Positions 7,758-29,629 are shown, numbered from the stretch's first letter. The stretch is DNA of 64,000 bases from Desulfatiglandales bacterium (GCA_963666345.1 OY762721.1:3392001-3456000); one strand, 5' to 3'. The notes: generated by a model not told the origin, from the letters alone. A program made the numbers and translations.

Positions 7758-7780
7758 AAAACCCGCCGTTAGGCGGGTTT
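7758..7780 (-). terminator. Intrinsic terminator downstream of the small basic protein gene
   Basis: AAACCCGCC-GTTA-GGCGGGTTT hairpin; A-run on + gives a U-tail on the - strand. Confidence 0.6.
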
Positions 7781-7823
7781 CATATATGAAGATACCCCTT
7801 GCTTTCGGGGAAAAGAAAAGGGG

Positions 7824-7964
7824 TTAAGCATTGTCCTTAGTAGACAGTTCTCTCATGATCTCGATGTTTTTCTGAAGTCGTTTCTGGTTGGCCTTGAGGT
7901 TGGCCTTGTTGGGCCTTTTCTTTCTGTTTCGGATTGCCGATGTCTTTTTACTGTTTGACGCCAT
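7824..7964 (-). CDS. 46-aa basic small protein MASNSKKTSAIRNRKKRPNKANLKANQKRLQKNIEIMRELSTKDNA
   Basis: Below the ORF-track cutoff; GGAG RBS upstream, terminator downstream, protein-like helical composition. Confidence 0.65.
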   Translation of the reverse strand: MASNSKKTSAIRNRKKRPNKANLKANQKRLQKNIEIMRELSTKDNA

Positions 7965-8061
7965 TTTTTTTCTCCGATTTAATATTTATGAATCCGTACC
8001 TTATTACTAACCTCTATTAATTTTGTCAATAACAAAAGGGAAAATATGTAAATAGGGACCT

Positions 8062-11888: not shown

Positions 11889-12081
11889 TGTTGATTCCCT
11901 GTCTGATCCGTCCTGTGCGAACGAGCCTTGCCGGAGGCGGGCAAGTCCACCACAGGCGTTCGATGGTTTATTCCCCCTAATCCTATGCGGGGGTTGCATT
12001 CCGGTAGTGGAAAACGCTGAGACAAAGGGTAAATGAATTGCCCCGGTGAGTCAATACAATTAGCCCTTGAGTTAATATGGC

Positions 12082-12097
12082 TTGAAATCCCATATTT
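12082..12097 (+). repeat. Left attachment core (TTGAAATCCCATATTT)
   Basis: Identical 16-mer at 27461-27476; lies about 50 bp from the integrase stop codon. Confidence 0.85.
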
Positions 12098-12150
12098 TCT
12101 TACCTAATCTAAAAAAATAAATCAAATAAATTTAAGTGTTTAACTCGTTT

Positions 12151-12852
12151 TTAGTGCTTCCCGTTCCCTTCATTGCTAACGGTTTTGCTAACATTTTTCC
12201 TGAAGGTCTCTAATATCTTTATTGCCTGGATTTTGTCTTGATCGTCAATTCTGTCATACCTTGAATCCATATCTCTTGATGAATGTCCGGTGATTGACAT
12301 CCTGACAGATTTTGAAACTCCGGCCTTTCTTGCATCTGTGACAAAGGTATGCCTCAAGTCATGGAATATAAAACCACCTTTGACCCTTGATCCCCATTGA
12401 ATCCCGGCATCCTTGCAAGCCTTCATCATGGCTTTTCTGAAATAATTTATGTCTCTGTATTGAATAGAAAAAACATGATCGTCATGTATTGACCTAGGAA
12501 TCTTCTTAAGTATCTGGAAGGTCTCTTCTGATATCGGAATGCTTTTCTTTTTACTTTCCTTTGTGTCTTCAGCCTCAAGGGTTATCATTCTATGTTTTAG
12601 GTCCACCTTATCCCATGTCAGATTGACAATTTCACCTTTTCGCATCCCTGACCAGTACCCTAGGGATATAATACCTTCTAACGGTTTTTGAGAATGCTCA
12701 AAAAGGCTGCTGTATTCACTTACAGTCAATATCCTATCCCTGGCATTAGTATTTCCTTTGAGAAGTGACTTGACCCTTCTTAATGCCTTCAGTGGTTCGC
12801 CTGTTATCAGGTCGTTATCAAATGCCTTTATCACCATTGATTTCGTGTATTT
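12151..12852 (-). pseudogene. Tyrosine recombinase/integrase, N-terminus removed by IS21
   Basis: GMRKGEI, FHDLRHTF, TGH and RY catalytic motifs; the ORF-track start MGQFWTP is read from the IS21 inverted repeat. Confidence 0.9.
12173..12192 (+). repeat. Putative integrase arm-type sites (TTGCTAAC x2)
   Basis: Tandem TTGCTAAC at 12173 and 12185; the same pair recurs at 27309 and 27320 near the right att. Confidence 0.65.
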
Positions 12853-12982
12853 TGTGAATGGTTTTTGGTTTAAGGCGGCATGCAAAAATGACCCACCTAT
12901 AGGGCGAATCGGCGTCCAAAATTGACCCACCCCTGAAAGCCTTCTATTCTGCTGTGACTATGGTAGAAGGAGGCGGAAAGGG

Positions 12983-14500
12983 ATGCTCACAGTGGAAACA
13001 ATCCGTAAGATACGATTAGCTGTTCTCAGAGATGGCAAATCCATACGTCAGACAGCGAAGGATCTGCGCCTTAGCAAAAATACAGTAAAAAAGGCGATAA
13101 GGAGCGGAGAAACATCTTTTCAGTACGAACGAAGCAACCAGCCAAGACCCAAGCTGGGGCCGTTTATAGACATGCTGAAAGGCTTTCTGGAAGAAGACGA
13201 GAAACTGCCCAAAAAACTGCGCAGGACAGCCCAGATACTTTTTGAAGAGCTGCAACTCAACGGCTACGAAGGTGGCTATGACAGCGTACGGAGATATGTT
13301 CAAAGATGGCGCCAGGATCAAAGGAGCTTGCCAAAGGAGGTATTTATACCTTTGGTATTTGATCCTGCAGAAGCCTTTCAGTTTGACTGGAGTCATGAGT
13401 GGGTAGATCTGGACGGAAGCAGAGTAAAGGCAAAGGTTGCACATATAAGGTTATGTCACAGCCGCTACTTCCTTTGTATTGCCTACCCCAGAGAAACCCA
13501 GGAGATGGTGTTTGATGCCCATATCAGGGCCTTTGAGTTTTTTGGGGGAGTTTGCCGTAAAGGCATCTATGACAATCTCAAAACAGTGGTTAACAAGATC
13601 CTGGGAGGAAGGGAAAGACAGTTCAACAGCCGCTTCAGCCAACTGTGTTCCCATTATTTATTTGAACCGGTAAGCTGCACCCCTGCTGCAGGTTGGGAAA
13701 AGGGTCAGGTGGAAAACCAGGTAGGTGTGGTCAGAAGGAGATTTTTCACTCCCCGAATCAAGGCCAGGGATTTCACACACCTAAACGAGCTGCTTAGAGA
13801 ACAATGCATCACCTGGGCAAAGACCCGTAAGCATCCAACAATATCTGATAAGACGGTTTGGCAGGTCTACAGTGAAGAGAGACCCTATCTGATAAATCTA
13901 CCACCTCTCTTTGATGGATATGCACAACGTCCAGCCAGGGTTACCCCCAGCTCACTTGTAACCTATGACCGGAACCGATACAGCGTTAATTGCAGCCAGG
14001 TGGGTAAAGCGGTCTATATGAGAGTATATGCCGATCGGATAGTGATAGTAAATAACGGTTGTATCGTAGGAGAGCATGATAGGCATTTTGGAAAGAACAA
14101 GACTATTTTTAATCCCTGGCATTATGTCCCGGTCCTTGAACGTAAGCCCGGGGCTCTCCGTAATGGAGCCCCCTTTAAAGACTGGCAACTTCCCGATCCT
14201 GTCGAAGGCGTCCTAAATGGGCTTCAAAACCGTTTTTCCGACTGGGACCGTCAGTTTGTGGCCATTCTAAATGCTGTTCCTTTCTACGGACTTGAGGCTG
14301 TAAGTAAAGCCTGTAAGGAGGCCCTAAAGATAAGGGCCGTAAGTAAAGAGGTGGTTCTCAATCTTTTAAACAGGGATCAGGATCAGGATTGCACGCCTGA
14401 TTTGGGTATCCCCTCCCATCTGATTCTCAAGCAAGAGCCCATAGCAGACTGCCGCCGCTATGAACGTTTGGTAAGGGAGGGATACCATGCTGCGCAATGA
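12983..14500 (+). CDS. istA: IS21 transposase
   Basis: N-terminal HTH, FQFDW, YDNLK and EKGQVE (DDE) motifs. Confidence 0.95.
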
Positions 14501-15218
14501 TATCATGGACCAGATGGAAAAACTAAAGTTGCGGGGTATGCAGTCCATTTATGATGAAGTTGTCTCCAATGGACGCAAGAGCCATTCAACGCCTGAAAAG
14601 GTAATCCTGGAACTGCTCAAGGCTGAAGCTGCCGAAAGATATATAAGGAGTATCCGATATCGTATGGGACAGGCCAGGTTTCCTGTCCTTAAAGATATCG
14701 ATGGCTTTGATTTTAACGGGGCCTGTGTTGATGAAGCCCAGATTAGGTCTATTTATCAGGGTGATTTTATAGCCGAACATATCAACCTGATTTTTGTAGG
14801 TGGCACCGGTACGGGCAAAACCCATTTAGCCATAACTATAGCGGCCCAGGCCATAAGGAATGGCAGGAAGTGCAAGTTTTATAACCTGGTGGATCTGGCA
14901 AATGAGCTTGAGCAGGAGAAAATGATTGGATTGGCCGGCAAAATCACAGCAAGACTACTTCGATTTGATCTTGTGGTCCTCGATGAACTGGGTTATCTGC
15001 CTTTTTCCAAAAACGGCAGTCAACTGCTCTTTCATCTTATATCAAAACTCTACGAACAGACATCCATAGTAATCACCACCAACTTGACCTTCGGTGAATG
15101 GCCCCAAGTCTTTGGAGATAAAAAAATGACTACGGCCATGCTTGATCGGTTGACTCATCATTGTGAAATTATAGAAACAGGTAACGAAAGCTGGAGAATG
15201 AAACACGCAGCTTCATAG
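14487..15218 (+). CDS. istB: IS21 helper ATPase
   Basis: [29 protein letters not shown]. Confidence 0.95.
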
Positions 15219-15321
15219 ATAAAGAAGGGATCAACTACTCAACTATTTAACCATATTTTTTTCTCAGGGGTGGGTCAATTTTGGACGCCGATGATGGGTC
15301 AATTTTCAACGCCTATTGACA

Positions 15322-17423
15322 TTCAGGTAGTCGCCTACAATAGAAGGGTCTAGGACATTGATATTTCTTACTCTTAATTCGGGAGTTACGCTTTCCTTGT
15401 CTACCTGTGCCAAGTTATTCATAGGGGATACTTTCTCCGGTCCCCTTTCTCCAAATTCATAGAGTTGTCCGCTTTCCCCAATACCCTTGATATGCTCGTT
15501 TATTGTCCCGCCACCAGCCATGAACTGCACCGGGTTATCAAAATTCGGAGTAAACCCACCACTAAACATCCCGGTAATTGCGCCTGCCGCTTTACTTATC
15601 AAACCATTACCTGAAGACCCTCCGGTCAAGGTATTAAATAGCGGTTCAATGGTGTACTTCTGAAGCATCATTTGTGTAACCATTTTTGAATATGATTTCA
15701 GGATGTCATTAAAAGAGGTATCAGCACCCCAGACCATTTCATTGAGGGTGCTTGACCATGAAGAGGCCCAACCGGACATAGCGTTTTCAAGTTCATTACT
15801 CAAAGACTTGACTTCGGTCTTCTGCTTTTCATAATAGACCTCTGTTAATTGCTCTATGGCTTTCTGTTTGGCCTCTTCATCTTGAATGCTTTTTTCTATA
15901 TATTCCCGCTGTACGTCGTACCAGTCAGACAGCCTTTGTTCTTCAGTCTGGAAATGTTCATTCCATAGGGTTTGGATGTCCTTTATGGTATCGCTTTCTA
16001 AGCTGATCCTGGCTTCCCAACCTTCAATGTTAAGTTGGTTCTCCTGTCTTATCCTGTCCGCTGCGGCTGCTAGTCTTTCTATGTCTGCGTTTCTGTTTGC
16101 CTTTGAAATGAATGCCAGTTTGTCGGCCTCAGTCAGCCCGGTAACTTTTGGCTGTATTGTTTTAATGTTCGCTGCTTTAGGGGTGAAAGAGGAAAAATCC
16201 GGCTGGGAAAGCATCCAACTATCTTTGATCTTGTTAAGCTCGGCATATTGCTGTCTGTTCTGAAGGTCTGAAATGGTCTTGTCTATCAATGCAATATTAG
16301 CAGTCAGCCTTTTTGCGCCCTCTCTTGCCTCTTCTTTCGTGATATATCCCGGCACCCATGCAAGGGCCTTGTCAGTAAAGTCTGATCCTGTAGTGGCACT
16401 CTGAAACTTATTCAGTTCCTTTTGTAGGTCTTCTCGCTGTTCTTTAAGCCTACCCATGACTGTATCAGGACCATACAGAAGCCCGGCCCACCACTCAGCG
16501 GCAAAGGCAACACTACCCACCGCGCCACCAGCGGCACTACTCACCAGCTTTAAAGACTGCGCGATATTTCCCAAATAAGTTGGGATATCCTGTCTTAAAA
16601 ATTCCTGATTCTGTGCAACCCAACTGGTCATGTCTTCGGCGATTTCTGCAATGCTAGGAGCTGCGGAAATAACAGCACTCGTCATTTGTGTTTTTATAAC
16701 AGTTGATAGGTCTGTTAATCTGTCATTTGCCGTTGCTGACCCCCGGATAAGGTGTTCATCTATGGCAAGGCCAAGACGTTCAAAAGTGGCCCTTAGCTCT
16801 TCTACTGACTTCATGCCGCCCTTTACGACATTGGTCATTCCCACACCAGCCGACCGGCCAAAAGCGGCAGATGAAAAAGCGGCCTTGTCCGTTGCATTCT
16901 CAATACCGGCCATTCGGTTTATGTAAATATCAAGGGCTTCCCCGGTTGTGTTCGTGGCTACAAGCTGATTTAATAGCTCTTCATCGTATTTCTTCAGATA
17001 GGTGAGCATCGCCCCGGTACCAACCTTGAGTTCACCTATTCGCTTTGTGAATGCTTCCAGGGCTCCATCGAGTTTGCCGGTTTCAACCCCCGAACGTTCA
17101 GCCATAAACCTATATTCCTGAAGTTTATCGGTAGATATGCCTATTCTGTCTGCTGTCTTTCCGATCGTGTCAGCGGCATCAATATTTCTTTTGATCAGAT
17201 ACCCTAGACCAGTTGCACCAGCCGCTAGAACCATGCCGCTCCTGAAGTTTAAAACTGACTTTCTTAAGGAGGTCCATTGCCGTTCAGCCTTTGCAAGATA
17301 TCTGTTTGTTTTGGCTGAAAAGGAATTGACTGAGCTGGCCGCGCTTCTTAGGTCTGCTTTGAATTTATCATCATTGACAATCAGGTCAGTTACCAGACTG
17401 CCAATGTCCATTTTATTTGCCAT
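15322..17423 (-). CDS. Phage tail tape measure protein, C-terminus clipped by IS21
   Basis: N-terminal IGSLVTDLIVNDDKF and ADTIGKTADRIGISTDKLQ; long helical body; C-terminal MAGGG...GERGPE...NINVLDP typical of siphophage TMPs. Confidence 0.8.
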
Positions 17424-17698
17424 TACGTCTCCTTTCCTTAAAAATAAGCCCCAGGATCGTTTTTTGACTTAGACATATACATATTCAACCCTAGGGTAAT
17501 ATATTAAATACAACCTCGTGCCGATTAAGGCCCATAAAAGGCGCATTTTAGTTTGACACTAGATAGAGGTTCCCCCAGGCGGCTAAGAAGGCGCAAAACC
17601 GCCCAGGGGATAGGGGGGCTGTCCAGGCCCCAACTTTCTTGTTATGACTTGGAATGCTTTTCATTATAGTGTTTTATGGATCTAGCCTCTCGCTTCCT

Positions 17699-18235
17699 TT
17701 ATTCAAAATCTTTTGCCGTCAATATTTCCGGCTCAAAATCGGCATCCTTCAATCTGCTTTTCTCCGCGTCTGTCAAAAGCCCCACTCGATCCAAGTAAGC
17801 GGCCTGTGATTCAACAATTAACCGTTCATCCGGGTTAAACTCATAGGGGTCTAATATTGGTACTCCAAAAACAAAAGATTGTGTCTCTTCAAGCGGCTCT
17901 TCATCTGGTTTTCTTTGGTAATTTTGGGGGCATTCCAAGATTTTGCGATTTCCCGGCGCTTCAAGCTGCCACCATGCAAACGGTTTTTGCCCTGGATGTT
18001 CCTTTAACCAGCTTATAACCGTTGCTGAATTTTTAATTTCAGCCCATGTTTCAAACCATGTCGGTCCTTTACCATGCCTGACTGAAGGTTCACCCGGTAT
18101 GGCCCAACAAAATGAAAAACCCCTAAAACCTTCATTTTGTGGCTCATCCCCAGTAAGTAAAAATTTCACTTGCCAATCTTCAAGGCTATTGGCGTTTACT
18201 CTTTTTCTTGTAATTTTTTTCCTTTTTGTTGGCAT
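17699..18235 (-). CDS. Hypothetical protein coupled to small terminase
   Basis: 178-aa ORF starting 1 nt after the terS stop; basic N-terminus, HPGQKPFAWW and ESQAAYLDRVGLL segments. Confidence 0.7.
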   Translation of the reverse strand: MPTKRKKITRKRVNANSLEDWQVKFLLTGDEPQNEGFRGFSFCWAIPGEPSVRHGKGPTWFETWAEIKNSATVISWLKEHPGQKPFAWWQLEAPGNRKILECPQNYQRKPDEEPLEETQSFVFGVPILDPYEFNPDERLIVESQAAYLDRVGLLTDAEKSRLKDADFEPEILTAKDFE

Positions 18236-18236
18236 T

Positions 18237-18581
18237 CTAGCTCCTTCCGCCTGGCCTTCCCGGTTTGTCCCTTAGCGGTTCAATGTCCAGGTTTAAGGCC
18301 CTTAACGCGTGGAATTTTTGTCCCCTGGCATCGCGTTCAATCCCTAATAGAGGATGTAATTTTTTCTGTTGAAAACGGTCCAAAATAGTTTGACCTTCCT
18401 TTTTAATCTGCTTGCGGCATTTGATCTCTCGCGACTCTGCGTTCCCGTATTGCTGTAAAAGCAGTAATCCGGCAACATCATTAATAAGATATTCGTCAGC
18501 TAAAGATTCTATTCTTAAAACAGTCTCTTTTGGCCAATGTTTACATGGCCTCAAGTGACTTGGTACGTCATTCCAGTCCAT
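18237..18581 (-). CDS. Terminase small subunit, P27 family
   Basis: LLQQYG...IKKEGQTILDRFQQKKLHPLLGIERDAR...ALRALNL pattern of P27-type TerS; GAGGAG RBS. Confidence 0.78.
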   Translation of the reverse strand: MDWNDVPSHLRPCKHWPKETVLRIESLADEYLINDVAGLLLLQQYGNAESREIKCRKQIKKEGQTILDRFQQKKLHPLLGIERDARGQKFHALRALNLDIEPLRDKPGRPGGRS

Positions 18582-18717
18582 TCCATAGACTCCTCAATTT
18601 TTTTTAAGGAAAAACTCAATTTAAAAAAGAAATTCCTAGGCACATGGTTATAGGCATAGGTCGTATAAGGCTATATAGGCCCCCCTGTAAAAGGGGGGAC
18701 CGCTAAACCCGACTGGC

Positions 18718-19443
18718 TTATAGTTTGGCTAGTTTTGCGTCAATCCTTGCAACCCTTGAAGCAAGATCTTCGTCAGTTGGTAGTAAGTGAAAGGGGTTTA
18801 TGTCGGAAACATCGCGGTCAGATTTTTCAATGTTAAAGTCTTCTAGTTGGTGCGGATCTGGAATATTATCCTTAAGCTTCTCAAGCAATACTTCGTCAAA
18901 CTCTGGCTCTAGCTTCATGGCCTCAAGCAACTTGATAGATTGCTGACAGTATTCTACAGCTCTCAATATAGAATTTTTGTTGCTATAGGTAACTAGCTTC
19001 TTTTTCAGCTTGATTAAATTTAAGCCCATGTTTCGTGTTTGGCTATTGGCTTTCAACCTTCGGAAGTCAGCTAGCTTGGTATTAAAAAACTCAATCCCCC
19101 GGTCAATTTCAGGATCGTAAGTTGTATAAATAATTTCCTGCCACTTGTTTATAGCATTGTTCAACCTCGCACTCTCACCCCATTTTTTTAATCGCAACCT
19201 GTTCACTTCCTTTTCTGCATCTCTTAGGGCATCTGCTGCGGAATTCATAGTCTGTGTCGCTTTTTCAAGATCGTCATTAAGTTTGAAAATCCTCTTTTCT
19301 CCTTCCGTCTTCAGCTTGTCGATTTCCTTTGCTGCCGCCTTTCGTTTTTTAATGACTTCGCGTTCTGCTGCTTCCCGCGCTGCTCTTATTCCTGCTGATT
19401 CTTCAATCTCCTTAAGCCTTTTCTCTAATGCTGTGTTTTCCAT
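18718..19443 (-). CDS. Coiled-coil hypothetical protein
   Basis: E/K/A-rich heptad pattern; GGAGG RBS before ATG 19443. Confidence 0.7.
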   Translation of the reverse strand: MENTALEKRLKEIEESAGIRAAREAAEREVIKKRKAAAKEIDKLKTEGEKRIFKLNDDLEKATQTMNSAADALRDAEKEVNRLRLKKWGESARLNNAINKWQEIIYTTYDPEIDRGIEFFNTKLADFRRLKANSQTRNMGLNLIKLKKKLVTYSNKNSILRAVEYCQQSIKLLEAMKLEPEFDEVLLEKLKDNIPDPHQLEDFNIEKSDRDVSDINPFHLLPTDEDLASRVARIDAKLAKL

Positions 19444-19472
19444 AATGCCTCCATTTTGTTTAGTGTTTTTGT

Positions 19473-19670
19473 TTATAAAGCCCCACATCTTTTAAGGATC
19501 TTCTTTCGGCGTATATTTGCCTGCAGTCTCTTTGCTCTTTTACGGTCTGATTTTTTGGGGTTTTTCAACCTTTCAGAGAGGGTCTTGAAACTGCCGTCTT
19601 TCTCAACTTTTTTCCTAAGTTTCAAGATCGCTAATCGAAGGTCACTTTTCCCCACCTTGACGCTAAGCAT
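19473..19670 (-). CDS. rpsU: Ribosomal protein bS21-like protein (element-encoded, divergent)
   Basis: 65 aa MLSVKVGKSDLRLAILKLRKKVEKDGSFKTLSERLKNPKKSDRKRAKRLQANIRRKK fits the bS21 pattern VKV...A(L/I)xx(F/L)xxxxEKxG...R...KxS..RKRAK; GGAAGGG RBS. Confidence 0.65.
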   Translation of the reverse strand: MLSVKVGKSDLRLAILKLRKKVEKDGSFKTLSERLKNPKKSDRKRAKRLQANIRRKKILKRCGAL

Positions 19671-19740
19671 AACTATCCCTTCCAGGCATCGCTTGCCTTT
19701 TGTGTGCTGTTCAGTGTTAATTGTATAATTGATAAGAGAT

Positions 19741-19944
19741 TTAATTTTGGGAGTAGGGAAGGGATTCAATAAACTTTCTGACATCAACGGAGTCAAATAG
19801 AACTCGGCGGCCTAACCGCTTGGCCTTGATAGGAAAAGGGTTCTTTGCTTTACGACAAATCCTATTTCGTATGGTGCGCGGTGAAAGGTTTAATCTATTG
19901 GCAACCTGTTCAACTGATAACAGTTGCCGCTGCTCCTGGCTCAT
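19741..19944 (-). CDS. AlpA/excisionase-like HTH protein
   Basis: LLSVEQVANRLNLSPRTIRN...FP...RLGRRVLFD. Confidence 0.82.
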   Translation of the reverse strand: MSQEQRQLLSVEQVANRLNLSPRTIRNRICRKAKNPFPIKAKRLGRRVLFDSVDVRKFIESLPYSQN

Positions 19945-20119
19945 GACGCCCCCCTTTGGTTAAATTGTTATTGTTGACAAGACATCGGAAACACTTATTC
20001 TTAAGAATCCTTTTTAATACCTCGTAACCCTTTGTATTATCAGATTCAGTTAGACCCTGAATCCTAACGCTTTCAATCGGACATCCTTTGTCTGATTTAC
20101 ATTCAAAAGTTATTTCCAA
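19910..20119 (-). CDS. Small hypothetical protein (TTG start)
   Basis: AAGGAGGT RBS before TTG 20119; fills the gap between prim-pol and alpA. Confidence 0.5.
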   Translation of the reverse strand: MEITFECKSDKGCPIESVRIQGLTESDNTKGYEVLKRILKNKCFRCLVNNNNLTKGGRHEPGAAATVIS

Positions 20120-20217
20120 GAATCCACCTCCTTTAATTGTTTTTAGCCCCTGTTCTAATTTTTTATTGCCCGCCCGTTCCCGGTCCCCGGAGCTAGCGAA
20201 GGACCACACCAAATATG

Positions 20218-21834
20218 TTATTTATGCCATTTATCTGTTGGCACAATTTCGCACCCCTTAACGATCTTAAAAGTTCGCTTTAGGTAATTTGGGTTATGTC
20301 CCTGCCTTGCCCAGGCTTTAGCCTTCCTGATTGTGATAATGGTTCCGTCTGGCGGATTCTGGTCAAGATTTAGATAAAGCCTCGGTTTCTCAAGGCCAAA
20401 GTCTCCGCCCCGCCCCTCTGCCTTATCTTGTGACTTCTGAAGACATACAATGCAGATTCCTTTGTCTAGCTTTTCATATATCCGCTTTAGGTCCGCCGAT
20501 ATCTTCCAGAAGTCAGAGCTAATTTCATAAAAGTCAATTATATTGAAGTCATTCGGTAGGATTGCATCTGAGAAGTTTGAGGACCTTTCCCTGAAGTCAA
20601 GAGACTTCCATTCATCAAGAGGTACAGGAAACAGCTTTAATCTTGTCTTTAGTTCCTGACTTCCCATTTCTGAGGAAAGATAACGCACCTTGTGGCGCTT
20701 CCTGTTCATATAGGCAAGGTTTAAGGCAAGGGCGCTTTTGCCTGCGTTTTGGGTCCCTGCGATTACAGCAATGTTTTTAGGATATAGCGTTGCAAGTTTT
20801 TCGATCCCTAGAGGCCATTGAATATTAAAGGGTGCATCATCTGCCGTTTGCCAGTCTATGGCATCGCATTCAGACTCAACCTTTCGATACTGCCCGCGCT
20901 TGTTTCCGTATTTCTCAATTATTCCTTCTGCCTTGAGTCTTGACAAATAGACCTTTACAGCGTTTCTTTCTTCCCTTGTTACTATCTGTAACTCTTTGTA
21001 ACTATCTGTTACTAAAAAGTAACCATCTGTTACTAACACCCACTCGCGGACCTCTTCAGCAAGGTTCCTCTCGCGCCTCTGTAACCTTTTCATGGCTGAT
21101 TGAATTTTTACTGAAATATCTCTTTCAGGATATGGAGGATTGCAGGCTTTTGATGCTATAACCCTAAGATATTGCTGTATTTCTTCTTGAGGCATCCCGC
21201 CTTTTACAAGATAATTGGTAAGGTGAAAAAGGTCATTATCACGACGGCCTTGTGTAAGTAAATTGTTACTATCTGTTACTATTTGTAACCTTTTGTTACT
21301 ATCTGGACTGGACCCCTCTATATAAATGCTTTTATTTAAAGAATTATATATAGGCTGCGGCAGCGGCTCGGTTTGAACCTCGCCTAATGACTTACCCGGT
21401 ACCCAGGCATAAGGCTTGCCGTTTTCTCCAATGCTTGGAGGTGCGACGATATATCCGCCCTGACCCCGGTAATCGACATCTTGAATAAAGCCTGTTGCAT
21501 TGCCTAGGCCCTCTCTATGACTAACGTATAAATGCCGACCTCCGCGCGGCGTTGTCGCTTCTGCCGTTTTAAACCCTTCAGGAAGTAGCTTTGTGACCTC
21601 AGAAAAGCCCTTGCCTGAATCAATGTCTATGACATCAACATTGCTTAGATCACCTGTGACAATGCCGATATTTGCATCAGGCCACTTTTGCCACCATTCA
21701 TTGACTTGATCCGTAGTCGGCCTTTCTTTTTGGAATTTTTCCCATTTGACTAGGGGCTTTTTGCCCTTTGCCTGAATGGGAATTACTGAAAGCCCTGCGC
21801 TTTCATACCTTAAGGCATCGTTTGAAAAGTTCAT
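20218..21834 (-). CDS. Bifunctional primase-polymerase (Prim-Pol) fused to a RecA/DnaB-like helicase domain
   Basis: GLSVIP..KKP, WPDANIGIVTG, DVIDID, TPRGGRHLY, GGYIVAPPS; C-terminal Walker A AGTQNAGKS. Confidence 0.88.
   Translation of the reverse strand: MNFSNDALRYESAGLSVIPIQAKGKKPLVKWEKFQKERPTTDQVNEWWQKWPDANIGIVTGDLSNVDVIDIDSGKGFSEVTKLLPEGFKTAEATTPRGGRHLYVSHREGLGNATGFIQDVDYRGQGGYIVAPPSIGENGKPYAWVPGKSLGEVQTEPLPQPIYNSLNKSIYIEGSSPDSNKRLQIVTDSNNLLTQGRRDNDLFHLTNYLVKGGMPQEEIQQYLRVIASKACNPPYPERDISVKIQSAMKRLQRRERNLAEEVREWVLVTDGYFLVTDSYKELQIVTREERNAVKVYLSRLKAEGIIEKYGNKRGQYRKVESECDAIDWQTADDAPFNIQWPLGIEKLATLYPKNIAVIAGTQNAGKSALALNLAYMNRKRHKVRYLSSEMGSQELKTRLKLFPVPLDEWKSLDFRERSSNFSDAILPNDFNIIDFYEISSDFWKISADLKRIYEKLDKGICIVCLQKSQDKAEGRGGDFGLEKPRLYLNLDQNPPDGTIITIRKAKAWARQGHNPNYLKRTFKIVKGCEIVPTDKWHK
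20977..21037. repeat. Iteron array 1 inside the prim-pol gene (six 10-bp units, consensus TGT(T/A)ACTATC)
   Basis: TGTTACTATC TGTAACTCTT TGTAACTATC TGTTACTAAA (A) AGTAACCATC TGTTACTAAC. Confidence 0.75.
21264..21303. repeat. Iteron array 2 inside the prim-pol gene (four 10-bp units) next to an AT-rich tract
   Basis: TGTTACTATC TGTTACTATT TGTAACCTTT TGTTACTATC followed by AT-rich 21317-21352. Confidence 0.75.
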
Positions 21835-21901
21835 TTTGTTCTAGCTCCTATCCCGGACACTCCGCCCGGAAGTTGGCTTTCAAGAAGCTCGGAGTTAGGT
21901 G

Positions 21902-22102
21902 TTAAAAAACCTCTTTTTCACTGACCCCCAGGAAATGACAGATTTTTTCCTTCATTTCCTGCGTGGGCGTTTCGTACCCTCGGATAACCTTTGAAACTCG
22001 GCTTTCTGCAATCCGTGTTTGAAATGCCAAATCTCTTTGGCTTACACCCTTCAGAAAAATTGCATTCCGTAACTTGATATTTCTTTCAGTTTCCATGATC
22101 AC
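21902..22102 (-). CDS. Cro/XRE-family HTH regulator
   Basis: GVSQRDLAFQTRIAESRVSKVIRGYETP. Confidence 0.82.
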   Translation of the reverse strand: MIMETERNIKLRNAIFLKGVSQRDLAFQTRIAESRVSKVIRGYETPTQEMKEKICHFLGVSEKEVF

Positions 22103-22400
22103 CTCCCTTAAATAAATATTGTTTGAATCTACGGTAAAAAAACATTTCTCCTTCCCGTCATTGACAATTTAGACAAAATTATCTGTTTTATCTTGTCAAT
22201 TTGGTATCTTATCCGCCTATGCGGATAAATCATACCCGGCCCCGATACTCTACTAGCTATCTGCTTATAGGTAAGTGGTGGATCTCCATAAAAAAGACTT
22301 AGGCATTTGTTTTGAAGTTAGGTTCTGGGGAAGGAGAAATATCAGACAGATATAAACGATAAATCAAATTACTGATTTATATGAATCAAAAAAAAGACTG

Positions 22401-22835
22401 TTAAAGAATGCCTTCCGCTATGGCGTTGAGGTTGACAAGTAGAAGAGACCTTCGATTACCTAGCTTATGGGTAAGCTCTCTGTGTTTATGTGAACGATGA
22501 ACCTTGATATGCTCCGACACTTCCACTGTGTACCATTCATTAGTGTTGCCGATAAAATTGTTGGGGTCTAGGAAATCGAAATTCGGTTCGTTTCTAAATT
22601 CTTTGTATAGTTGAAAAAATCTCTTTATCTTGCGGAACTCAATGTTTAATTCGGCCAGTTCTTTAATTAATGCTAACTCTAGTAAGTTCCTTTTTGTATA
22701 TCTGCGGGGGACACCTCTTCCAGGCTGCTTGCTGTCTTCTTCAAGCGTCAACAGCCCTTCATCTGAATAGAACTGTATCCGTCGCCCTGGTAGGCCAATA
22801 AGTTTTTCAATATCTTTTCGGGTGTATGTTTCCAT
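22401..22835 (-). CDS. MerR-like HTH protein
   Basis: YTRKDIEKLIGLPGRRIQFYSDEGLL...GRGVPRRYT. Confidence 0.75.
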   Translation of the reverse strand: METYTRKDIEKLIGLPGRRIQFYSDEGLLTLEEDSKQPGRGVPRRYTKRNLLELALIKELAELNIEFRKIKRFFQLYKEFRNEPNFDFLDPNNFIGNTNEWYTVEVSEHIKVHRSHKHRELTHKLGNRRSLLLVNLNAIAEGIL

Positions 22836-23002
22836 AATTTAAAAGTCGTAATCAGATTTATGATTTATAATAAAGTAAAAAAAATATATGTCAAGCGCTA
22901 ATGCTGCATTGATGGGCCATAAATCAGATTAATGGTTATTCCCTTTCACTAATAAGCATAAATTCCTAAAATGTTATATATCTTATTGATATTAAATCCA
23001 AA

Positions 23003-24288
23003 TTAGTCAATGGGCGTTTTTACGAAAAAACCGTGTTCTGTGTACTCGTCTTTATATTTTGAAAAGTCTATTCTGTCTTCAGGGTAATTTCTTGGCATTA
23101 AATCATATTCTCGGCCTAGATCCAGACTTTTAAGCTTTGCACAGGTCCCGCACTGTTCTTTCGGTAATCCATGAATACAGAGAAAGCAGAAAGATTCTGG
23201 CCCATTGCTTGAATTATCTAAATAACGCCGCTCAATAAATAAATTGTCCTTATCGAATCTTTTCAGAATATCATCGGCTTGGGTTATGTTGTTTACCAAA
23301 AACCCCTGGCAAACCTGGCTCCGCTTGCCTACTTCATTGTTTATAAGCAAAAGGGAATAGCCATCTGTTCCACAAGAAGTCGTTCTAAAGAACTTTAGAA
23401 ATTTATACAAGCCTTGCTGTATGTATGGGGTGCATTCCTTGCACTTTGCCGATCCAACATCCCTGTGACATAAATCACATAGTAAGCCCCTGGAGCTTTG
23501 TCCCTTTCTTGTGTCTGTCTTTTCAGGTTCTTTATATTTTAATGCAAGGCTTGCTTCAATAAAACTTCCCTGTTCAATGGTTAATTTAAACGGGTCTGAT
23601 TCCCCCCTAGATCCTATTGATTCTAACCCGTTATCAATAAGGGTCTGCCCCGGTTTTTCTCCTGTTCCCCTGTCAATTTTACCAAACACTTCAAAAAGTT
23701 CTTTATCATCAAACTTATCATTATATTGATTATATGAAAATTCCGGTTTCCAGTTTTCCTCATCAAAAGGTTTTTGCTTTGGCATCGCACGGACACCGAT
23801 TAACCAAAAAATCTTCATCATTCTATGTAAGCTGATTCTGTTTTTTATGTACCTTAAAGGATCTTGAAGTAGTGGGATAGCTTCGCCATTTACAGCAAGC
23901 ATCTTTCCCTTATCGGCTCTAAGTGCATAATGAAAGGCGTAATCACAATTATATTTTGTCCCCAGCCCGGCAAGTTTTTTTCTGCTCGCTTTATTTAACG
24001 GGTCCCTATTCATAAAAGCATAAAGGGGCAGACAGGGGATAAGCGCATCTTTCAAACCTGTATGCTTGCATAGATCTTTGAAAAATCTCTTTAGGTATGG
24101 CTTTTTTGTCAAAGATCCATCTTTTATTTTTTTTCTTTTTGCAGATTGAATTAAGTTATCAACCTTTTTTGTATCAACCTCCATTAAATATGCTGCGTCT
24201 GGATATTTATACTTTTGACCATAAACTAAATTTAAGGCCATGTTTTCTTGAATGGAAAGCCCTTCAATGTTAGCCCATTCGGTTCTAT
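23003..24288 (-). pseudogene. C-terminal part of an IS-interrupted Cys-rich protein with a sigma70 region-4-like HTH
   Basis: Frame joins 26743-27172 across IS copy 2 (..EANRTEW..); EGLSIQENMALNLVYGQKYKYPDAAYLMEVDTKKVDNLIQSAKRK; CDLC..CKEC and CFLC..CGTC. Confidence 0.7.
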
Positions 24289-24402
24289 TGTGAATCGGCA
24301 TGCAAAAATGACCCACCTATAGGGCGAATCGGCGTCCAAAATTGACCCACCCCTGAAAGCCTTCTATTCTGCTGTGACTATGGTAGAAGGAGGCGGAAAG
24401 GG

Positions 24403-25920
24403 ATGCTCACAGTGGAAACAATCCGTAAGATACGATTAGCTGTTCTCAGAGATGGCAAATCCATACGTCAGACAGCGAAGGATCTGCGCCTTAGCAAAAA
24501 TACAGTAAAAAAGGCGATAAGGAGCGGAGAAACATCTTTTCAGTACGAACGAAGCAACCAGCCAAGACCCAAGCTGGGGCCGTTTATAGACATGCTGAAA
24601 GGCTTTCTGGAAGAAGACGAGAAACTGCCCAAAAAACTGCGCAGGACAGCCCAGATACTTTTTGAAGAGCTGCAACTCAACGGCTACGAAGGTGGCTATG
24701 ACAGCGTACGGAGATATGTTCAAAGATGGCGCCAGGATCAAAGGAGCTTGCCAAAGGAGGTATTTATACCTTTGGTATTTGATCCTGCAGAAGCCTTTCA
24801 GTTTGACTGGAGTCATGAGTGGGTAGATCTGGACGGAAGCAGAGTAAAGGCAAAGGTTGCACATATAAGGTTATGTCACAGCCGCTACTTCCTTTGTATT
24901 GCCTACCCCAGAGAAACCCAGGAGATGGTGTTTGATGCCCATATCAGGGCCTTTGAGTTTTTTGGGGGAGTTTGCCGTAAAGGCATCTATGACAATCTCA
25001 AAACAGTGGTTAACAAGATCCTGGGAGGAAGGGAAAGACAGTTCAACAGCCGCTTCAGCCAACTGTGTTCCCATTATTTATTTGAACCGGTAAGCTGCAC
25101 CCCTGCTGCAGGTTGGGAAAAGGGTCAGGTGGAAAACCAGGTAGGTGTGGTCAGAAGGAGATTTTTCACTCCCCGAATCAAGGCCAGGGATTTCACACAC
25201 CTAAACGAGCTGCTTAGAGAACAATGCATCACCTGGGCAAAGACCCGTAAGCATCCAACAATATCTGATAAGACGGTTTGGCAGGTCTACAGTGAAGAGA
25301 GACCCTATCTGATAAATCTACCACCTCTCTTTGATGGATATGCACAACGTCCAGCCAGGGTTACCCCCAGCTCACTTGTAACCTATGACCGGAACCGATA
25401 CAGCGTTAATTGCAGCCAGGTGGGTAAAGCGGTCTATATGAGAGTATATGCCGATCGGATAGTGATAGTAAATAACGGTTGTATCGTAGGAGAGCATGAT
25501 AGGCATTTTGGAAAGAACAAGACTATTTTTAATCCCTGGCATTATGTCCCGGTCCTTGAACGTAAGCCCGGGGCTCTCCGTAATGGAGCCCCCTTTAAAG
25601 ACTGGCAACTTCCCGATCCTGTCGAAGGCGTCCTAAATGGGCTTCAAAACCGTTTTTCCGACTGGGACCGTCAGTTTGTGGCCATTCTAAATGCTGTTCC
25701 TTTCTACGGACTTGAGGCTGTAAGTAAAGCCTGTAAGGAGGCCCTAAAGATAAGGGCCGTAAGTAAAGAGGTGGTTCTCAATCTTTTAAACAGGGATCAG
25801 GATCAGGATTGCACGCCTGATTTGGGTATCCCCTCCCATCTGATTCTCAAGCAAGAGCCCATAGCAGACTGCCGCCGCTATGAACGTTTGGTAAGGGAGG
25901 GATACCATGCTGCGCAATGA
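24403..25920 (+). CDS. istA: IS21 transposase
   Basis: Identical translation to 12983-14500. Confidence 0.95.
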
Positions 25921-26638
25921 TATCATGGACCAGATGGAAAAACTAAAGTTGCGGGGTATGCAGTCCATTTATGATGAAGTTGTCTCCAATGGACGCAAGA
26001 GCCATTCAACGCCTGAAAAGGTAATCCTGGAACTGCTCAAGGCTGAAGCTGCCGAAAGATATATAAGGAGTATCCGATATCGTATGGGACAGGCCAGGTT
26101 TCCTGTCCTTAAAGATATCGATGGCTTTGATTTTAACGGGGCCTGTGTTGATGAAGCCCAGATTAGGTCTATTTATCAGGGTGATTTTATAGCCGAACAT
26201 ATCAACCTGATTTTTGTAGGTGGCACCGGTACGGGCAAAACCCATTTAGCCATAACTATAGCGGCCCAGGCCATAAGGAATGGCAGGAAGTGCAAGTTTT
26301 ATAACCTGGTGGATCTGGCAAATGAGCTTGAGCAGGAGAAAATGATTGGATTGGCCGGCAAAATCACAGCAAGACTACTTCGATTTGATCTTGTGGTCCT
26401 CGATGAACTGGGTTATCTGCCTTTTTCCAAAAACGGCAGTCAACTGCTCTTTCATCTTATATCAAAACTCTACGAACAGACATCCATAGTAATCACCACC
26501 AACTTGACCTTCGGTGAATGGCCCCAAGTCTTTGGAGATAAAAAAATGACTACGGCCATGCTTGATCGGTTGACTCATCATTGTGAAATTATAGAAACAG
26601 GTAACGAAAGCTGGAGAATGAAACACGCAGCTTCATAG
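25907..26638 (+). CDS. istB: IS21 helper ATPase
   Basis: Identical translation to 14487-15218. Confidence 0.95.
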
Positions 26639-26741
26639 ATAAAGAAGGGATCAACTACTCAACTATTTAACCATATTTTTTTCTCAGGGGTGGGTCAATT
26701 TTGGACGCCGATGATGGGTCAATTTTCAACGCCTATTGACA

Positions 26742-27172
26742 ATTCTATTGGCTTCTATCAGATCGCTTAAATCAAAATTAGCAGTATCGCTAGCATCTAA
26801 TAACGGACCATACCTAGCTTCTGTGTCTCTAAATCTTTTATTTAAACCGTGGTTAACATATTTCCTTTTTGAATTACACATTACCCATGTCAGTGTTCGA
26901 TCTTCAAAATCATTTTCAGTTGTTGTAGTTGAAAATCTCTTGAATCTGCGCGCTGCTTTCCGATTGCAAGTATCATATCTTTCACAAGTAAAACCTTTTG
27001 CCTTGCAAGGCTTCCTGATTGTTGGCTCTTTCTTGGGGATATTTGGTTCTGTGTCTGTCTGATTGATTTTAACTGTTGGAGGTCTATTTATAGGATATAG
27101 CCAATCCTTGTAGTCATTTTCAGGCATATATAGAGATTTCCGCTTTTCGTTGGCTGGTTTCCAGCGGGTCAT
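26742..27172 (-). pseudogene. N-terminal part of the IS-interrupted Cys-rich protein
   Basis: In frame with 23003-24288 once the IS and one target copy are removed; start uncertain (27172 or 27127). Confidence 0.65.
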
Positions 27173-27308
27173 ATCAGCCCAAAAAGTATCAGCTATGTCA
27201 GTTAATTTAAAGATAACATACCCCCATACAACCAGTTTAAGGGCCACACAATAAAACTCAAGAAAAATCAAAACGCTATTGTAAGAAATCTGGTTCATAG
27301 TCAGCATT

Positions 27309-27368
27309 TTGCTAACATTTTGCTAACACTTGGCGGAAAATACCCCCCTATGTCACCTTATGTCACTA
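27309..27368 (+). repeat. Arm-type sites (TTGCTAAC x2) and TATGTCAC x2 near the right att
   Basis: TTGCTAAC at 27309 and 27320; TATGTCAC tandem at 27349 and 27359. Confidence 0.6.
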
Positions 27369-27460
27369 GGTATCATATAGGCATTTAACTTACTGAATTA
27401 ATTTAAGAATAACGTTAAATTTGACTTATTTAAGCAAAGGAAAGAAAATGTTTATGCGGG

Positions 27461-27476
27461 TTGAAATCCCATATTT
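27461..27476 (+). repeat. Right attachment core (TTGAAATCCCATATTT)
   Basis: Identical to 12082-12097. Confidence 0.85.
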
Positions 27477-27803
27477 CAATGAATATATTCCTGCATACGC
27501 ACCAAAGGGCGTCAATGGGAAAGAGTAAAAAACCGGGCCCGGAGGGTCGGGAATAGGGTTACCCCTGAAAAGAGCAGGCTGCTATGCAGGGCATTTTAAG
27601 ATGCCTAAAGGTAAGTGCCCGGCATTCATAAAATTAAGGAACCCTGCAAGGTCAAGAAACGGCTGAGTGGATCCGATCCTCATTTAGGCAGTTTTAGCTT
27701 TTGAGCATTACAGGTACTTCGATTCATTCGGGGATAGCGATTTATCAGGCCTGGGTCAAAGGACCAAGTATTCTATAATGAAATAAAATATAGGTGGTAA
27801 AAT

Positions 27804-29618
27804 ATGGATGGATATGAAATTACACTTGAGGATTCCCGTGACGGGGAACTTCCTGATCAGAAAGAGCTTGAGAAGGAACTGGGTGATTATCTTTCAAAGA
27901 AGTATGGAAACAGGGTAAAGATAATGTCGCCACTCGTGTTTCCGAAAAATGATGAACTGTCAACGGAACAGTCAGGAGGGGAAGGCGGAGGAGTTCTGGC
28001 CGATTTCGACCTTCTGCCTGAAGAACTTGAAAGTTATCTCCAGAGTTTTGTGGTAAAGCAGGATGACGCAAAGGCTGTTTTGTCCACAAAGGTGTGTACC
28101 CATTTCAACAGGATTAAACATTTCAAAAAACTGAAATCAAGGAAGAACGGATCCGGTGTCGGAATGATCAAGAACAATGTGTTGATGATCGGACCGACCG
28201 GAGTGGGAAAGACATATATTATAAAACTTATCGCCGAAAAACTTGGTGTCCCGTTTGTAAAGGGAGATGCCACCAAATTCAGCGAAACCGGATATGTGGG
28301 AGGTGATGTCGAGGACCTTGTACGCGATCTTGTTTATGAGGCGGATGAAGACATCGAACTTGCGGAAAACGGTATAATCTATATCGATGAGATAGACAAA
28401 ATCTCGTCATCTCAGAATATCATAGGCCACGATGTGTCAAGGACCGGAGTTCAGAGGGCTCTGCTGAAACCCATGGAAGAGACGGACGTGGATCTCAAGG
28501 TAGCCCATGATCCGATCTCTCAGATACAGGCCATAGAGCAGTACCGAAGGACGGGGAAAAAGGAAAAAAAGGTCGTAAATACCAAAAATATCCTTTTTAT
28601 AATGAGTGGTGCCTTTGGTGAACTCACCAAGATAATAAGAAAGAGGCTTCAGAGTCAGGGTATAGGTTTTGAGGCGGATGTGAGACCAGCGGAGATCCCC
28701 TGGGAGATTCTCAAGGAGACAACCGCCCAGGATCTTGTAGAATTCGGGTTTGAATCGGAATTTGTCGGCAGGCTTCCGGTTATCGTGGTCTTTGATGAAT
28801 TGAAAAAGGAAGATCTGTTTGAAATCCTCAAAAATCCGAATAATCCTATTGTCATAAGCAAGCGTCTCGATTTCGGGGCCTACGGAATAGACATGGAATT
28901 TGAAGAAGAGGCCCTGAGCAGGATAGCCGACCTTGCAGCCATTGAAACGACCGGGGCCAGGGGGATAGTGAGCGCGGTTGAAAGGACACTGATACCTTTT
29001 GAAAAGAGGCTTCCATCGACAGATATGAATAAATTTCTGGTTACCCCTGAACTGGTTGATGATCCTCATTGCTACCTGGACTGGTTGATAAATAACCCTG
29101 ATAATGAGGATACGTGCCTAAGATTCGACAAGGCGAGGGAAAAACAACTCGCCCATATAAGGGAATATATCCTGGAAAGGGCGGAGGAGCTGGGCAGAAG
29201 ACTCGGTATGGAGATTTACGATAAGAGGGTGGACCTGATAGCCGTGCTCAGCATGAAAACGCCGTCGGCCATAACAAAGGCGATAGATGATTTCCGCCAG
29301 ATGTATAACGAGGTAAGGATTGAGGAGTCATCGCTGGTGGAAAGCCTTGAGGTGAATTTTTCCTTTGATGACAGCGCAATTGATGAGATAGTCGGAAAGG
29401 CCATCGAGACAGGTCAGCAGGCCGGGGAACTCGCCATGCAGGTGGTAAAAAGGCTCGAGTATGGGCTTAAGCTTGTGAAAGACAGATCCGGCATGGATGA
29501 GTTCACCATAAACGATGAGGCCGTGCGGGACATGGAAAATTTTATAAACAGGCTTATTAAGATTTACTACAGACAGGATTACGAACCGGTACGTGAATCA
29601 GAGGAAAAAGGAGACTGA
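27804..29618 (+). CDS. ClpX-like AAA+ ATPase without the N-terminal zinc finger, with C-terminal extension
   Basis: GPTGVGKT, DATKFSETGYVGGDVE, IYIDEIDK, GIGF loop, TGARG. Confidence 0.85.
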   Translation: MDGYEITLEDSRDGELPDQKELEKELGDYLSKKYGNRVKIMSPLVFPKNDELSTEQSGGEGGGVLADFDLLPEELESYLQSFVVKQDDAKAVLSTKVCTHFNRIKHFKKLKSRKNGSGVGMIKNNVLMIGPTGVGKTYIIKLIAEKLGVPFVKGDATKFSETGYVGGDVEDLVRDLVYEADEDIELAENGIIYIDEIDKISSSQNIIGHDVSRTGVQRALLKPMEETDVDLKVAHDPISQIQAIEQYRRTGKKEKKVVNTKNILFIMSGAFGELTKIIRKRLQSQGIGFEADVRPAEIPWEILKETTAQDLVEFGFESEFVGRLPVIVVFDELKKEDLFEILKNPNNPIVISKRLDFGAYGIDMEFEEEALSRIADLAAIETTGARGIVSAVERTLIPFEKRLPSTDMNKFLVTPELVDDPHCYLDWLINNPDNEDTCLRFDKAREKQLAHIREYILERAEELGRRLGMEIYDKRVDLIAVLSMKTPSAITKAIDDFRQMYNEVRIEESSLVESLEVNFSFDDSAIDEIVGKAIETGQQAGELAMQVVKRLEYGLKLVKDRSGMDEFTINDEAVRDMENFINRLIKIYYRQDYEPVRESEEKGD

Positions 29619-29629
29619 TTGGGAGACAT

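Follow-up and report, generated by a model that had tools for sequence, protein, structure and literature searches.

An island at positions 12082–27476 of the window, by which we mean the whole 64,000-nt stretch of Desulfatiglandales bacterium DNA analysed here (GCA_963666345.1 OY762721.1:3392001-3456000), is probably an integrated and now immobilised phage satellite of the phage-inducible chromosomal island (PICI) kind, whose ancestor would have hijacked the terminase of a siphovirus and built its own tape measure protein (TMP) into the tails of that helper. The satellite reading is well supported by recurrence. In relatives free of insertion sequences (ISs), the island's small terminase subunit (TerS) and a 178-aa protein encoded directly after it (designated o178) occur together in small elements without a gene for the large terminase subunit (TerL), and two of these, L132 and L173, carry a TMP gene and no recognised head gene. 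An earlier annotation of this DNA, referred to here as the sequence-only reading, had proposed a satellite with its own tape measure. The satellite part of this proposal is strengthened by the relatives; the copy at hand proved to be dead, and the assumption that satellites add head genes only has to be given up, as discussed below.

The island is an insertion bounded by a 16-bp repeat. It spans 15.4 kb, or about 10.5 kb without two IS21-family copies, and has a low GC content (0.36–0.47 vs. 0.48–0.55 in the flanks). The 16-bp core is present just twice in the whole 4.16-Mb genome, at 12082 and 27461. Contigs from two different studies (X1 and X2; both runs carry the label marine sediment metagenome) are identical to positions 11800–12097 and continue with the letters of 27477–27506. 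With a single core and 12097 joined to 27477, these contigs therefore represent the empty site, which agrees with the att-bounded element described earlier. The shares of sampled island words in X1 (0.07) and X2 (0.05) reflect the shared IS and a few short, low-depth island pieces, and say nothing firm about island abundance in those samples.

The integration point lies between purL and an AAA+ gene, which are divergent neighbours in 8 of 11 loci of related genomes; the remaining three comprise two loci with insufficient flank and one whose 1.5 kb of flank lacks purL. On the window, positions 27804–30808 hold this AAA+ gene (604 aa, Clp-like, AAA_2) followed by a radical SAM/SPASM gene. The AAA+ protein has counterparts of 58–76% identity in 37 of 40 related genomes searched, and of only 36–41% in the other three.

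The features of the island are the following.

12082–12097: attL core, 16-bp direct repeat; an imperfect repeat reaches out to 12071
12151–12875, minus strand: remnant of a tyrosine integrase, catalytic domain only (Pfam Phage_integrase 1.3e-20; phrog_1 2.1e-38)
12876–15321, plus strand: IS21-family IS copy 1 (IstA 505 aa, IstB 243 aa), with the first 7 bp of the 2453-bp IS gone
15322–17423, minus strand: TMP gene, 700 native codons (PHROG TMP families, best 1.1e-27)
17424–17698: non-coding gap of 275 bp before the TMP gene
17699–18235, minus strand: o178, candidate 178-aa partner of TerS; N-terminal half apparently homologous to the TerL N-terminal extension
18237–18581, minus strand: TerS, 114 aa, divergent P27/Terminase_4 type (Pfam E 0.002; phrog_83 8e-4)
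18718–19488, minus strand: open reading frame (ORF) of 256 aa, weak matches to coiled-coil proteins only
19473–19796, minus strand: basic ORF of 107 aa without family match
19741–19944, minus strand: AlpA-type HTH_17 regulator or excisionase (PF12728 4.5e-9; phrog_66 2e-9)
19910–20212, minus strand: ORF of 100 aa without assigned family
20218–21834, minus strand: Prim-Pol/PriCT_1/DnaB-like primase-helicase, replication module (Pfam, PHROG)
21902–22102, minus strand: Cro/C1-type helix-turn-helix (HTH) regulator (PF01381 8e-9)
22401–22835, minus strand: MerR-family regulator (PF13411 1.3e-10)
23003–24288, minus strand: Cys-rich gene, 3′ part, split from the 5′ part by IS copy 2
24289–26741, plus strand: IS21-family IS copy 2, complete, 2453 bp, with a 7-bp duplication (one mismatch) at its sides
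26742–27307, minus strand: Cys-rich gene, 5′ part
27461–27476: attR core, second copy of the 16-bp repeat

All native island genes lie on the minus strand. Transcribed from 27476 downwards, they are the Cys-rich gene, MerR, the Cro-type HTH, the Prim-Pol/PriCT/DnaB-like gene, the 100-aa ORF, the AlpA-type HTH_17 gene, the 107-aa ORF, the 256-aa ORF, TerS and o178, followed by the 275-bp gap, the TMP gene, IS copy 1 and the integrase remnant. ORF calls with Pfam and PHROG searches reproduce the content, order and shared direction first noted. The label "bS21-like" for the 107-aa ORF finds no support, as this protein matched no family at E ≤ 0.01.

Pfam, PHROG and tblastn searches of the island detected neither terL nor a gene for portal, capsid, tail tube or lysis. 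The tblastn search, in which 26 proteins from related phages and satellites (head, packaging and tail) served as queries, found no structural gene remnant in the island or the genome, the sole genome matches being cellular ClpP-like genes. The interval between terS and the TMP gene contains o178 and the 275-bp gap only, with no IS and no remnant detected by these 26 queries, as the sequence-only reading had stated. The same arrangement would arise if the island were a decayed temperate siphovirus prophage, from which deletions took the genes from terL to the tail chaperone at the o178–TMP interval together with the distal tail and lysis genes at the TMP–integrase interval, the likeness to a satellite being accidental. 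We consider this unlikely. The genome is rich in ISs (15 copies of this one), a deletion beside IS copy 1 is certain, and a non-coding gap of 275 bp lies ahead of the TMP gene; against this, the terS–TMP junction holds neither an IS nor a gene remnant, and the TMP start codon and ribosome-binding site are intact. The relatives described below bear on the same question.

The 705-aa ORF at 15322–17423 has no Pfam match, and is identified as a TMP by profile: it matches nine PHROG tape-measure families (best E 1.1e-27). Among 8000 scored candidates, 47 homologues were found at E ≤ 0.001, some of them with Tape_meas_lam_C or PhageMin_Tail domains. Scanning viral contigs with a TMP profile recovered 454 relatives among 596 pattern matches, 80 of which were kept; a single-protein scan of viral contigs with the TMP gave no matches. 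In the closest two long loci annotated (L008 and L009), the homologue lies inside a canonical siphovirus module ordered terL/portal, protease, capsid, neck, (terminator, tube, chaperone), TMP and distal tail. The assignment as a tape measure, already made in the sequence-only reading, is in agreement with both the PHROG profiles and these full siphovirus tail modules. That relatives of the TMP usually sit within full phage modules is also what a prophage origin would predict.

Over its first ~300 residues, the window TMP is 47–59% identical to TMPs of phage contigs. The alignment stops 17–47 residues short of the homologues' C-termini, corresponding to 15–45 lost codons; since it runs nearly to those C-termini, the gene is about 95% complete. 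Its start is intact, with a Shine-Dalgarno-like AAGGAAAGGAG ahead of the ATG. The 275-bp gap upstream shows no conservation with the gaps of relatives, folds no more strongly than shuffled sequences (z −0.88) and has no minus-strand promoter or terminator pattern.

Loci with an o178 homologue were collected from viral contigs (6 of 80 pattern matches, plus 3 of 6), from metagenome contigs (28 of 148) and by a TerS-seeded scan (36 of 116). Within the same phylum, 6 of 400 other genomes contributed, only two of these homologues being full-length. A census covered the 26 o178-positive loci with at least 1.5 kb downstream; those with shorter flanks were dropped, including L109 and L127, in which a capsid gene begins after the pair. 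Head genes (capsid, protease or portal) follow the TerS/o178 pair in 14 of the 26 (L106, L107, L108, L110, L111, L125, L133, L140, L148, L166, L168, L175, L177 and L180). A TMP gene with no recognised head gene follows it in two (L132 and L173), and an endonuclease, a second terS and terL in one (L124). Nothing was recognised in nine (L115, L116, L123, L128, L131, L149, L164, L179 and L189). The slot that holds a capsid, protease or portal gene in the 14 loci is occupied by a TMP gene in the window element and two independent relatives.

The closest relative by backbone, L108, is a whole contig of 8.9 kb encoding MerR, prim-pol, TerS, o178, a 295-bp gap, capsid and integrase. In L149, the stretch from integrase to TerS-o178 takes up ~7 kb, and L133 and L180 end in a serine recombinase. 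L132 carries RecE, RecT, AAA_25, an SNF2 helicase, a PDDEXK nuclease, TerS and o178, followed after only 16 bp by a 766-aa TMP (phrog_8462, 1.1e-19; profile of the window TMP family, 3.2e-17). In L173, DnaB, HNH, TerS and o178 are followed by the genes of an HK97-gp10-like tail completion protein and of a TMP of 729 aa (Tape_meas_lam_C 1.6e-22); searches of its 16.2-kb record yielded neither a capsid nor an integrase. After the TMP gene, L173 continues with convergent genes, including that of an MmeI-type restriction-modification enzyme (6833–9952, minus strand, 1039 aa). IS21-type IS remnants adjoin the L173 satellite module (L200:3444-5094).

Two more loci have the same TerS clade and a TMP, both without an o178 match. 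L182 encodes TerS, a Phage_TAC_11 protein and a TMP, and L183, a 10.4-kb record classed as provirus, encodes an integrase, TerS, capsid, protease, TAC_11, TMP and a gp10-like protein. A full prophage with terL, portal, capsid and tail genes between terS and the TMP gene was not seen among the relatives. The decayed-prophage explanation is further weakened by the order terS-o178-TMP being repeated in L132 and L173, and by the closest backbone relative being a small element ending in an integrase.

Identity among the TMPs of the window, L132, L173 and L183 is only 22–27%; for TerS, it is 45–50% among the window, L132 and L173. As the window TMP is close to phage TMPs and far from those of the other satellites, local acquisition is suggested. 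In the simplest reading, a conserved satellite backbone would take up the TMP of whichever phage it exploits.

The protein o178 belongs to a family left unnamed in Pfam, PHROGs, NCBIfam and PADLOC. A profile search yielded 2991 cluster representatives at E ≤ 0.001, of which 1670 reached E ≤ 1e-10, and the members listed measure 147–247 aa. These lengths indicate an intact gene rather than a terL stump; o178 as a truncated terL is ruled out by the family lengths of ~150–250 aa. Wherever an o178-positive locus extends upstream of the homologue, a same-clade TerS gene immediately precedes it. That a member of an intact family stands in terL's place beside this TerS clade in small elements also argues against a decayed prophage. 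In 11 loci in which this TerS clade precedes terL, i.e., in real phages, o178 is absent. The family is likewise absent from 401 genomes of a second phylum searched and from three genomes holding TMP relatives; none of 100 TMP-profile-seeded loci holds a homologue, and a single-protein scan of viral contigs with o178 gave no matches.

In phages, the TerLs that follow this TerS clade are 663–842 aa long and have ~100 extra N-terminal residues. By hhalign, residues 1–96 of the o178 family align with the first 84 TerL residues (95.2%, E 2.4e-8, 74 columns), and the control comparison of the o178 family with the TerS alignment gave 0.3%. On this profile evidence, o178 shares homology in its N-terminal half with the N-terminal extension of phage TerL. 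The place of terL appears to be taken in these satellites by a gene that retains of TerL only this extension and has a conserved C-terminal part of its own. The AlphaFold (AF2) model of o178 is confident (pLDDT 87.4, pTM 0.79); no fold matches were found with Foldseek (best E 4.6 in PDB and 2.0 in BFVD) or VIA-align wide (best Z 2.1). Complex prediction for TerS and o178 scored 0.02, which is uninformative in either direction.

The N-terminus of the lambda large terminase subunit binds the small subunit. By analogy, we propose that the TerL N-terminal extension docks on TerS, and that o178 most likely does the same, either drawing off the helper's TerS as a decoy or serving as an adaptor. A literature search by words, which carries little weight as it is blind to protein sequence, turned up no description of a TerS partner that stems from the TerL N-terminus. 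In terL's place beside TerS, o178 offers a concrete, testable candidate for the means by which these satellites take over the terminase.

The present state of the island was shaped by the two IS copies. Their assignment to IS21 is based on Pfam matches (rve, Mu-transpos_C_2 and IstB_IS21, 6.9e-74) and terminal inverted repeats, the ends being compared by eye. The genome contains 15 copies, 14 of them full-length, with copy 1 aligned from position 8 to 2453. Relative to the query copy, eight are 100% identical (seven complete copies and copy 1), one is 99.8% and six are 98.7–98.8% identical. These near-identical copies point to a recent burst. Two of the 15 copies struck this island. Excising copy 2 and its 7-bp duplication restores one open frame of 619 codons, and the 193-aa and 437-aa ORFs at its sides are therefore one gene. 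The 193-aa ORF was also considered as the lost integrase N-terminus and rejected, being the 5′ part of the Cys-rich gene.

IS copy 1 cuts both the 3′ end of the TMP gene and the 5′ part of the integrase gene. At the intact IS end, the TMP is cut after native residue 700, and the last five codons and the stop are IS sequence; the damaged end abuts the integrase near residue 155 of ~395. About 155 N-terminal residues of the integrase are gone, judging from full-length relatives of 390–396 aa (59–64% identity). The deletion downstream of the TMP gene noted in the sequence-only reading is certain: both genes are truncated, and whatever separated them is gone. For this island's integrase, no full-length copy is on record. 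Integrase relatives of 45–59% identity occur in 15 of 208 other genomes of the class, and none was tied to the TerS pair in the nine loci fetched. With integrase and TMP both truncated, this copy is, as judged from its genes, dead.

A 1428-nt contig of run X4 matches 12068–12853 exactly, has eight extra letters around 12853–12856, shares 12857–12876 and then continues for 611 nt unlike the IS. In X3, from the same sample and holding the element, the corresponding contig ends at 12853. The X4 contig could represent the integrase/IS junction in a variant, perhaps undeleted, state.

A siphophage with a P27-type TerS elsewhere in the host genome, which the sequence-only reading had suggested looking for, was not found: the 4.16-Mb genome gave 0 matches to TerL_ATPase, Terminase_6N, Phage_portal and Phage_capsid, none of the 26 structural proteins revealed one by tblastn, and paralogues of the element's genes are likewise lacking in this genome. 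A helper would thus have to enter from outside the cell. We hypothesize that it was a siphovirus whose TerS was of the P27 type, whose TerL had a long N-terminal extension and whose TMP was a related one. Upon its infection, the ancestor would have been excised by the integrase and AlpA and replicated by the prim-pol/helicase. Its own TerS would then steer the helper's TerL onto satellite DNA. The protein o178, a free-standing copy of the TerL N-terminal extension with a separate C-terminal domain, would dock on TerS as decoy or adaptor. The satellite TMP, taken from a local phage, would be built into helper tails and give chimeric tails, by analogy with the PLEs discussed below, for which such tails have been demonstrated by experiment. 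Later, two copies of the 15-copy IS would have landed in the element, and the deletion beside copy 1 would have cost it the 3′ end of the TMP gene, the 5′ part of the integrase gene and anything situated between the two.

The TMP could also be kept out of transducing particles, either as a recombination passenger or as a weapon that poisons helper tails in defence of the host, the element still being a satellite. Tail-interfering factors of PICIs and PLEs are known, namely Tai (PMC11364771) and Rta (PMC12987554), no chaperone gene lies beside the TMP gene in the window or L132, and the MmeI-type gene near the L173 module indicates that defence cargo occurs in this family. We regard such a role as improbable, because a full-length, phage-like TMP is kept at the same position in at least three independent elements and because, in the one tested case described in PMC12987554, that of the PLE, the satellite TMP is structural and needed for transfer.

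Among other small elements from related genomes, L209 (G946:C51, same bacterial family; 6500–16200) has the backbone Cro, Prim-Pol, AlpA ... integrase, with a 462-aa TerL-like gene (Terminase_3 6.8e-13) and an ERCC4 nuclease gene as cargo and no capsid seen; L203 has the same backbone with the ERCC4 nuclease only. By gene content, the cargo of the Cro/Prim-Pol/AlpA/integrase backbone is modular. This modularity, together with the fact that no helper is known, would also suit a helper-independent integrative element of another type, such as a phage-plasmid remnant or a cluster resembling a gene-transfer agent. Such an origin seems very improbable, as a TerS without TerL and a TMP without other virion genes would be useless unless a phage supplied the rest.

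Several points weigh against a PICI-like satellite with its own TMP. The TMP-bearing relatives are few (2 of 26), and L132, L173 and L182 are contig fragments (CheckV completeness 26% for L173 and 8% for L182), so that head genes could lie past their ends. L132 was left out of the capsid and integrase scans, and no Pfam or PHROG match exists for its ORFs past the TMP gene, one of which is 125 aa long. The window TerS misses the Pfam cut-off (Terminase_4, 19 bits vs. 24.7). Proteins in L115, L132, L173 and other loci are 45–53% identical to it and several of them pass that cut-off, so the P27 assignment made earlier is carried by the relatives rather than by the protein's own score. The relation of o178 to TerL is limited to the N-terminal half and weak by hmmsearch (best 15 bits; three of 11 TerLs at E < 1e-3, with 11 sequences searched). 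The copy can neither move nor make a full TMP, and additional phage genes, for the tail or otherwise, may have stood in the stretch lost between TMP residue 700 and integrase residue ~155. The window lacks a tail assembly chaperone gene, whereas PLEs, L182 and L183 pair one with the TMP; upstream of the window TMP, PHROG and tblastn searches found neither a chaperone nor a baseplate hub, and the downstream side was lost to the IS-linked deletion. Finally, the helper phage and all functions are deduced from genes alone.

Beyond this single island, we tentatively suggest, as a possibility we hold to be less probable than not, that the TerS/o178 pair marks an undescribed and widespread lineage of small satellites (~3000 protein clusters), in which terL gave way to a free TerL docking domain and the single slot for a structural gene is swapped between capsid and a TMP matched to the helper. 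If so, the free copy of the docking domain would hijack or jam the helper's terminase, TMP-only members would be packaged in the helper's heads and travel with chimeric tails, and classifiers forbidding tail genes would systematically miss the TMP-bearing members. Taken together, the window, L132, L173, L182 and L183 suggest that the TMP trick arose repeatedly, here on an environmentally widespread PICI-like backbone that differs from those of PLEs and EPIPs (both described below), the TMP apparently being borrowed each time from local phages. For annotation, this would mean that classifiers reading tail genes as proof of a prophage discard such satellites.

The replication module and the accessory end of the island add some detail. 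The primase-helicase matches Prim-Pol (1.6e-32) and PriCT_1, with DnaB_C at 24 bits under the 27-bit cut-off, and is 41% identical to the L108 protein over its full length. Inside its gene, clusters of GTAACTATCTGTTACTA-like repeats of 18–39 nt lie at 20976–21036 and 21263–21311, and may be iterons of a replication origin. The Cys-rich gene (~619 codons) encodes several CxxC pairs and has no family in Pfam, PHROGs, PADLOC or NCBIfam. Defence genes are often found in satellites at the accessory end, which is where this gene stands in the island. For the island's unnamed ORFs, PADLOC and NCBIfam yielded nothing useful.

Among known satellites, the closest likeness is to PICIs, which SatelliteFinder describes by an integrase, an alpA/merR/stl regulator, a primase-replicase, a capsid-morphogenesis gene and TerS, with tail and holin genes as "forbidden" components (PMC10085698). 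Judged component by component from this published description, the window element has four of the five core components (integrase, AlpA/MerR regulators, primase-helicase and TerS). No capsid-type match was found in any ORF or by tblastn; according to the same source, this gene is optional in Type B PICIs (PMC10085698). The element does contain a tail gene, that of the TMP. As tail genes are forbidden in the classifier, such elements are filtered out by design. Like PICIs, the element is a small att-bounded island without lysis genes, and its relative L108 has the fifth component, a capsid-type gene, as well. Unlike them, it has a TMP gene in the place of the capsid-morphogenesis gene, an integrase at the downstream end that is co-directional with the other genes, and a TerS paired with a 178-aa protein resembling the TerL N-terminus.

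A satellite TMP has been characterized in the PICI-like elements (PLEs) of Vibrio cholerae, which encode their own TMP, chaperone and baseplate hub and form chimeric tails (PMC12987554, Nature 2026). According to that article, the PLE TMP supplants the phage's in virions, tails become ~10 nm shorter and deletion of tmp lowers transduction by 96–99.9%; the legend of its Extended Data Fig. 10 lists putative tmp genes in PLE-like elements and some capsid-forming PICIs (cf-PICIs). The window element resembles PLEs in having its own TMP in a satellite without tail tube, sheath or fibre genes. The PLE backbone looks unrelated. The PLE helper is a myovirus and the PLE TMP is accompanied by a chaperone and hub, as described in PMC12987554, while no chaperone was seen in the window, where the downstream part is lost. 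PLEs use a serine recombinase (PMC9618062) in place of the tyrosine integrase of the window element.

EPIPs of Mycolicibacterium (~11 kb) carry TerS, a capsid protein, scaffold, adaptor, stopper, a serine integrase and a TMP, and their particles have altered, longer tails (PMC12822802, bioRxiv Dec 2025). Size and the combination of TerS with a TMP are shared with the window element; the head genes and serine integrase of EPIPs, as described there, contrast with the lack of a recognised head gene and the tyrosine integrase in the window. The premise of the sequence-only reading that satellites add head but not tail genes is out of date in view of PLEs, EPIPs and some cf-PICIs (PMC12987554, PMC12822802). 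According to PMC9618062, marine VEIMEs have TerS in some cases and no capsid genes; tail genes come up there only among the functions presumed to be the helper's.

In cf-PICIs, terL is accompanied by the genes for portal, protease, capsid and head-tail connectors (PMC10085698). The int/AlpA/primase backbone and a P27-type TerS are common to them and the window element, and some of them have a putative tmp. None of terL, portal, protease, capsid or connectors was found in the window element, which by its gene content is not a cf-PICI.

Small satellite proteins that act on the terminase have precedents. Ppi of the Staphylococcus aureus pathogenicity islands (SaPIs) and Rpp of an E. coli PICI bind the helper's TerS. 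The likeness of o178 to these proteins is one of proposed role only, o178 differing from them in its relation to the TerL N-terminus.

Satellite TMPs were already published in 2025–26 for PLEs and EPIPs and are not unheard of. To these known systems, the window element would add a satellite family with an interchangeable capsid/TMP slot and a protein resembling the TerL N-terminus.

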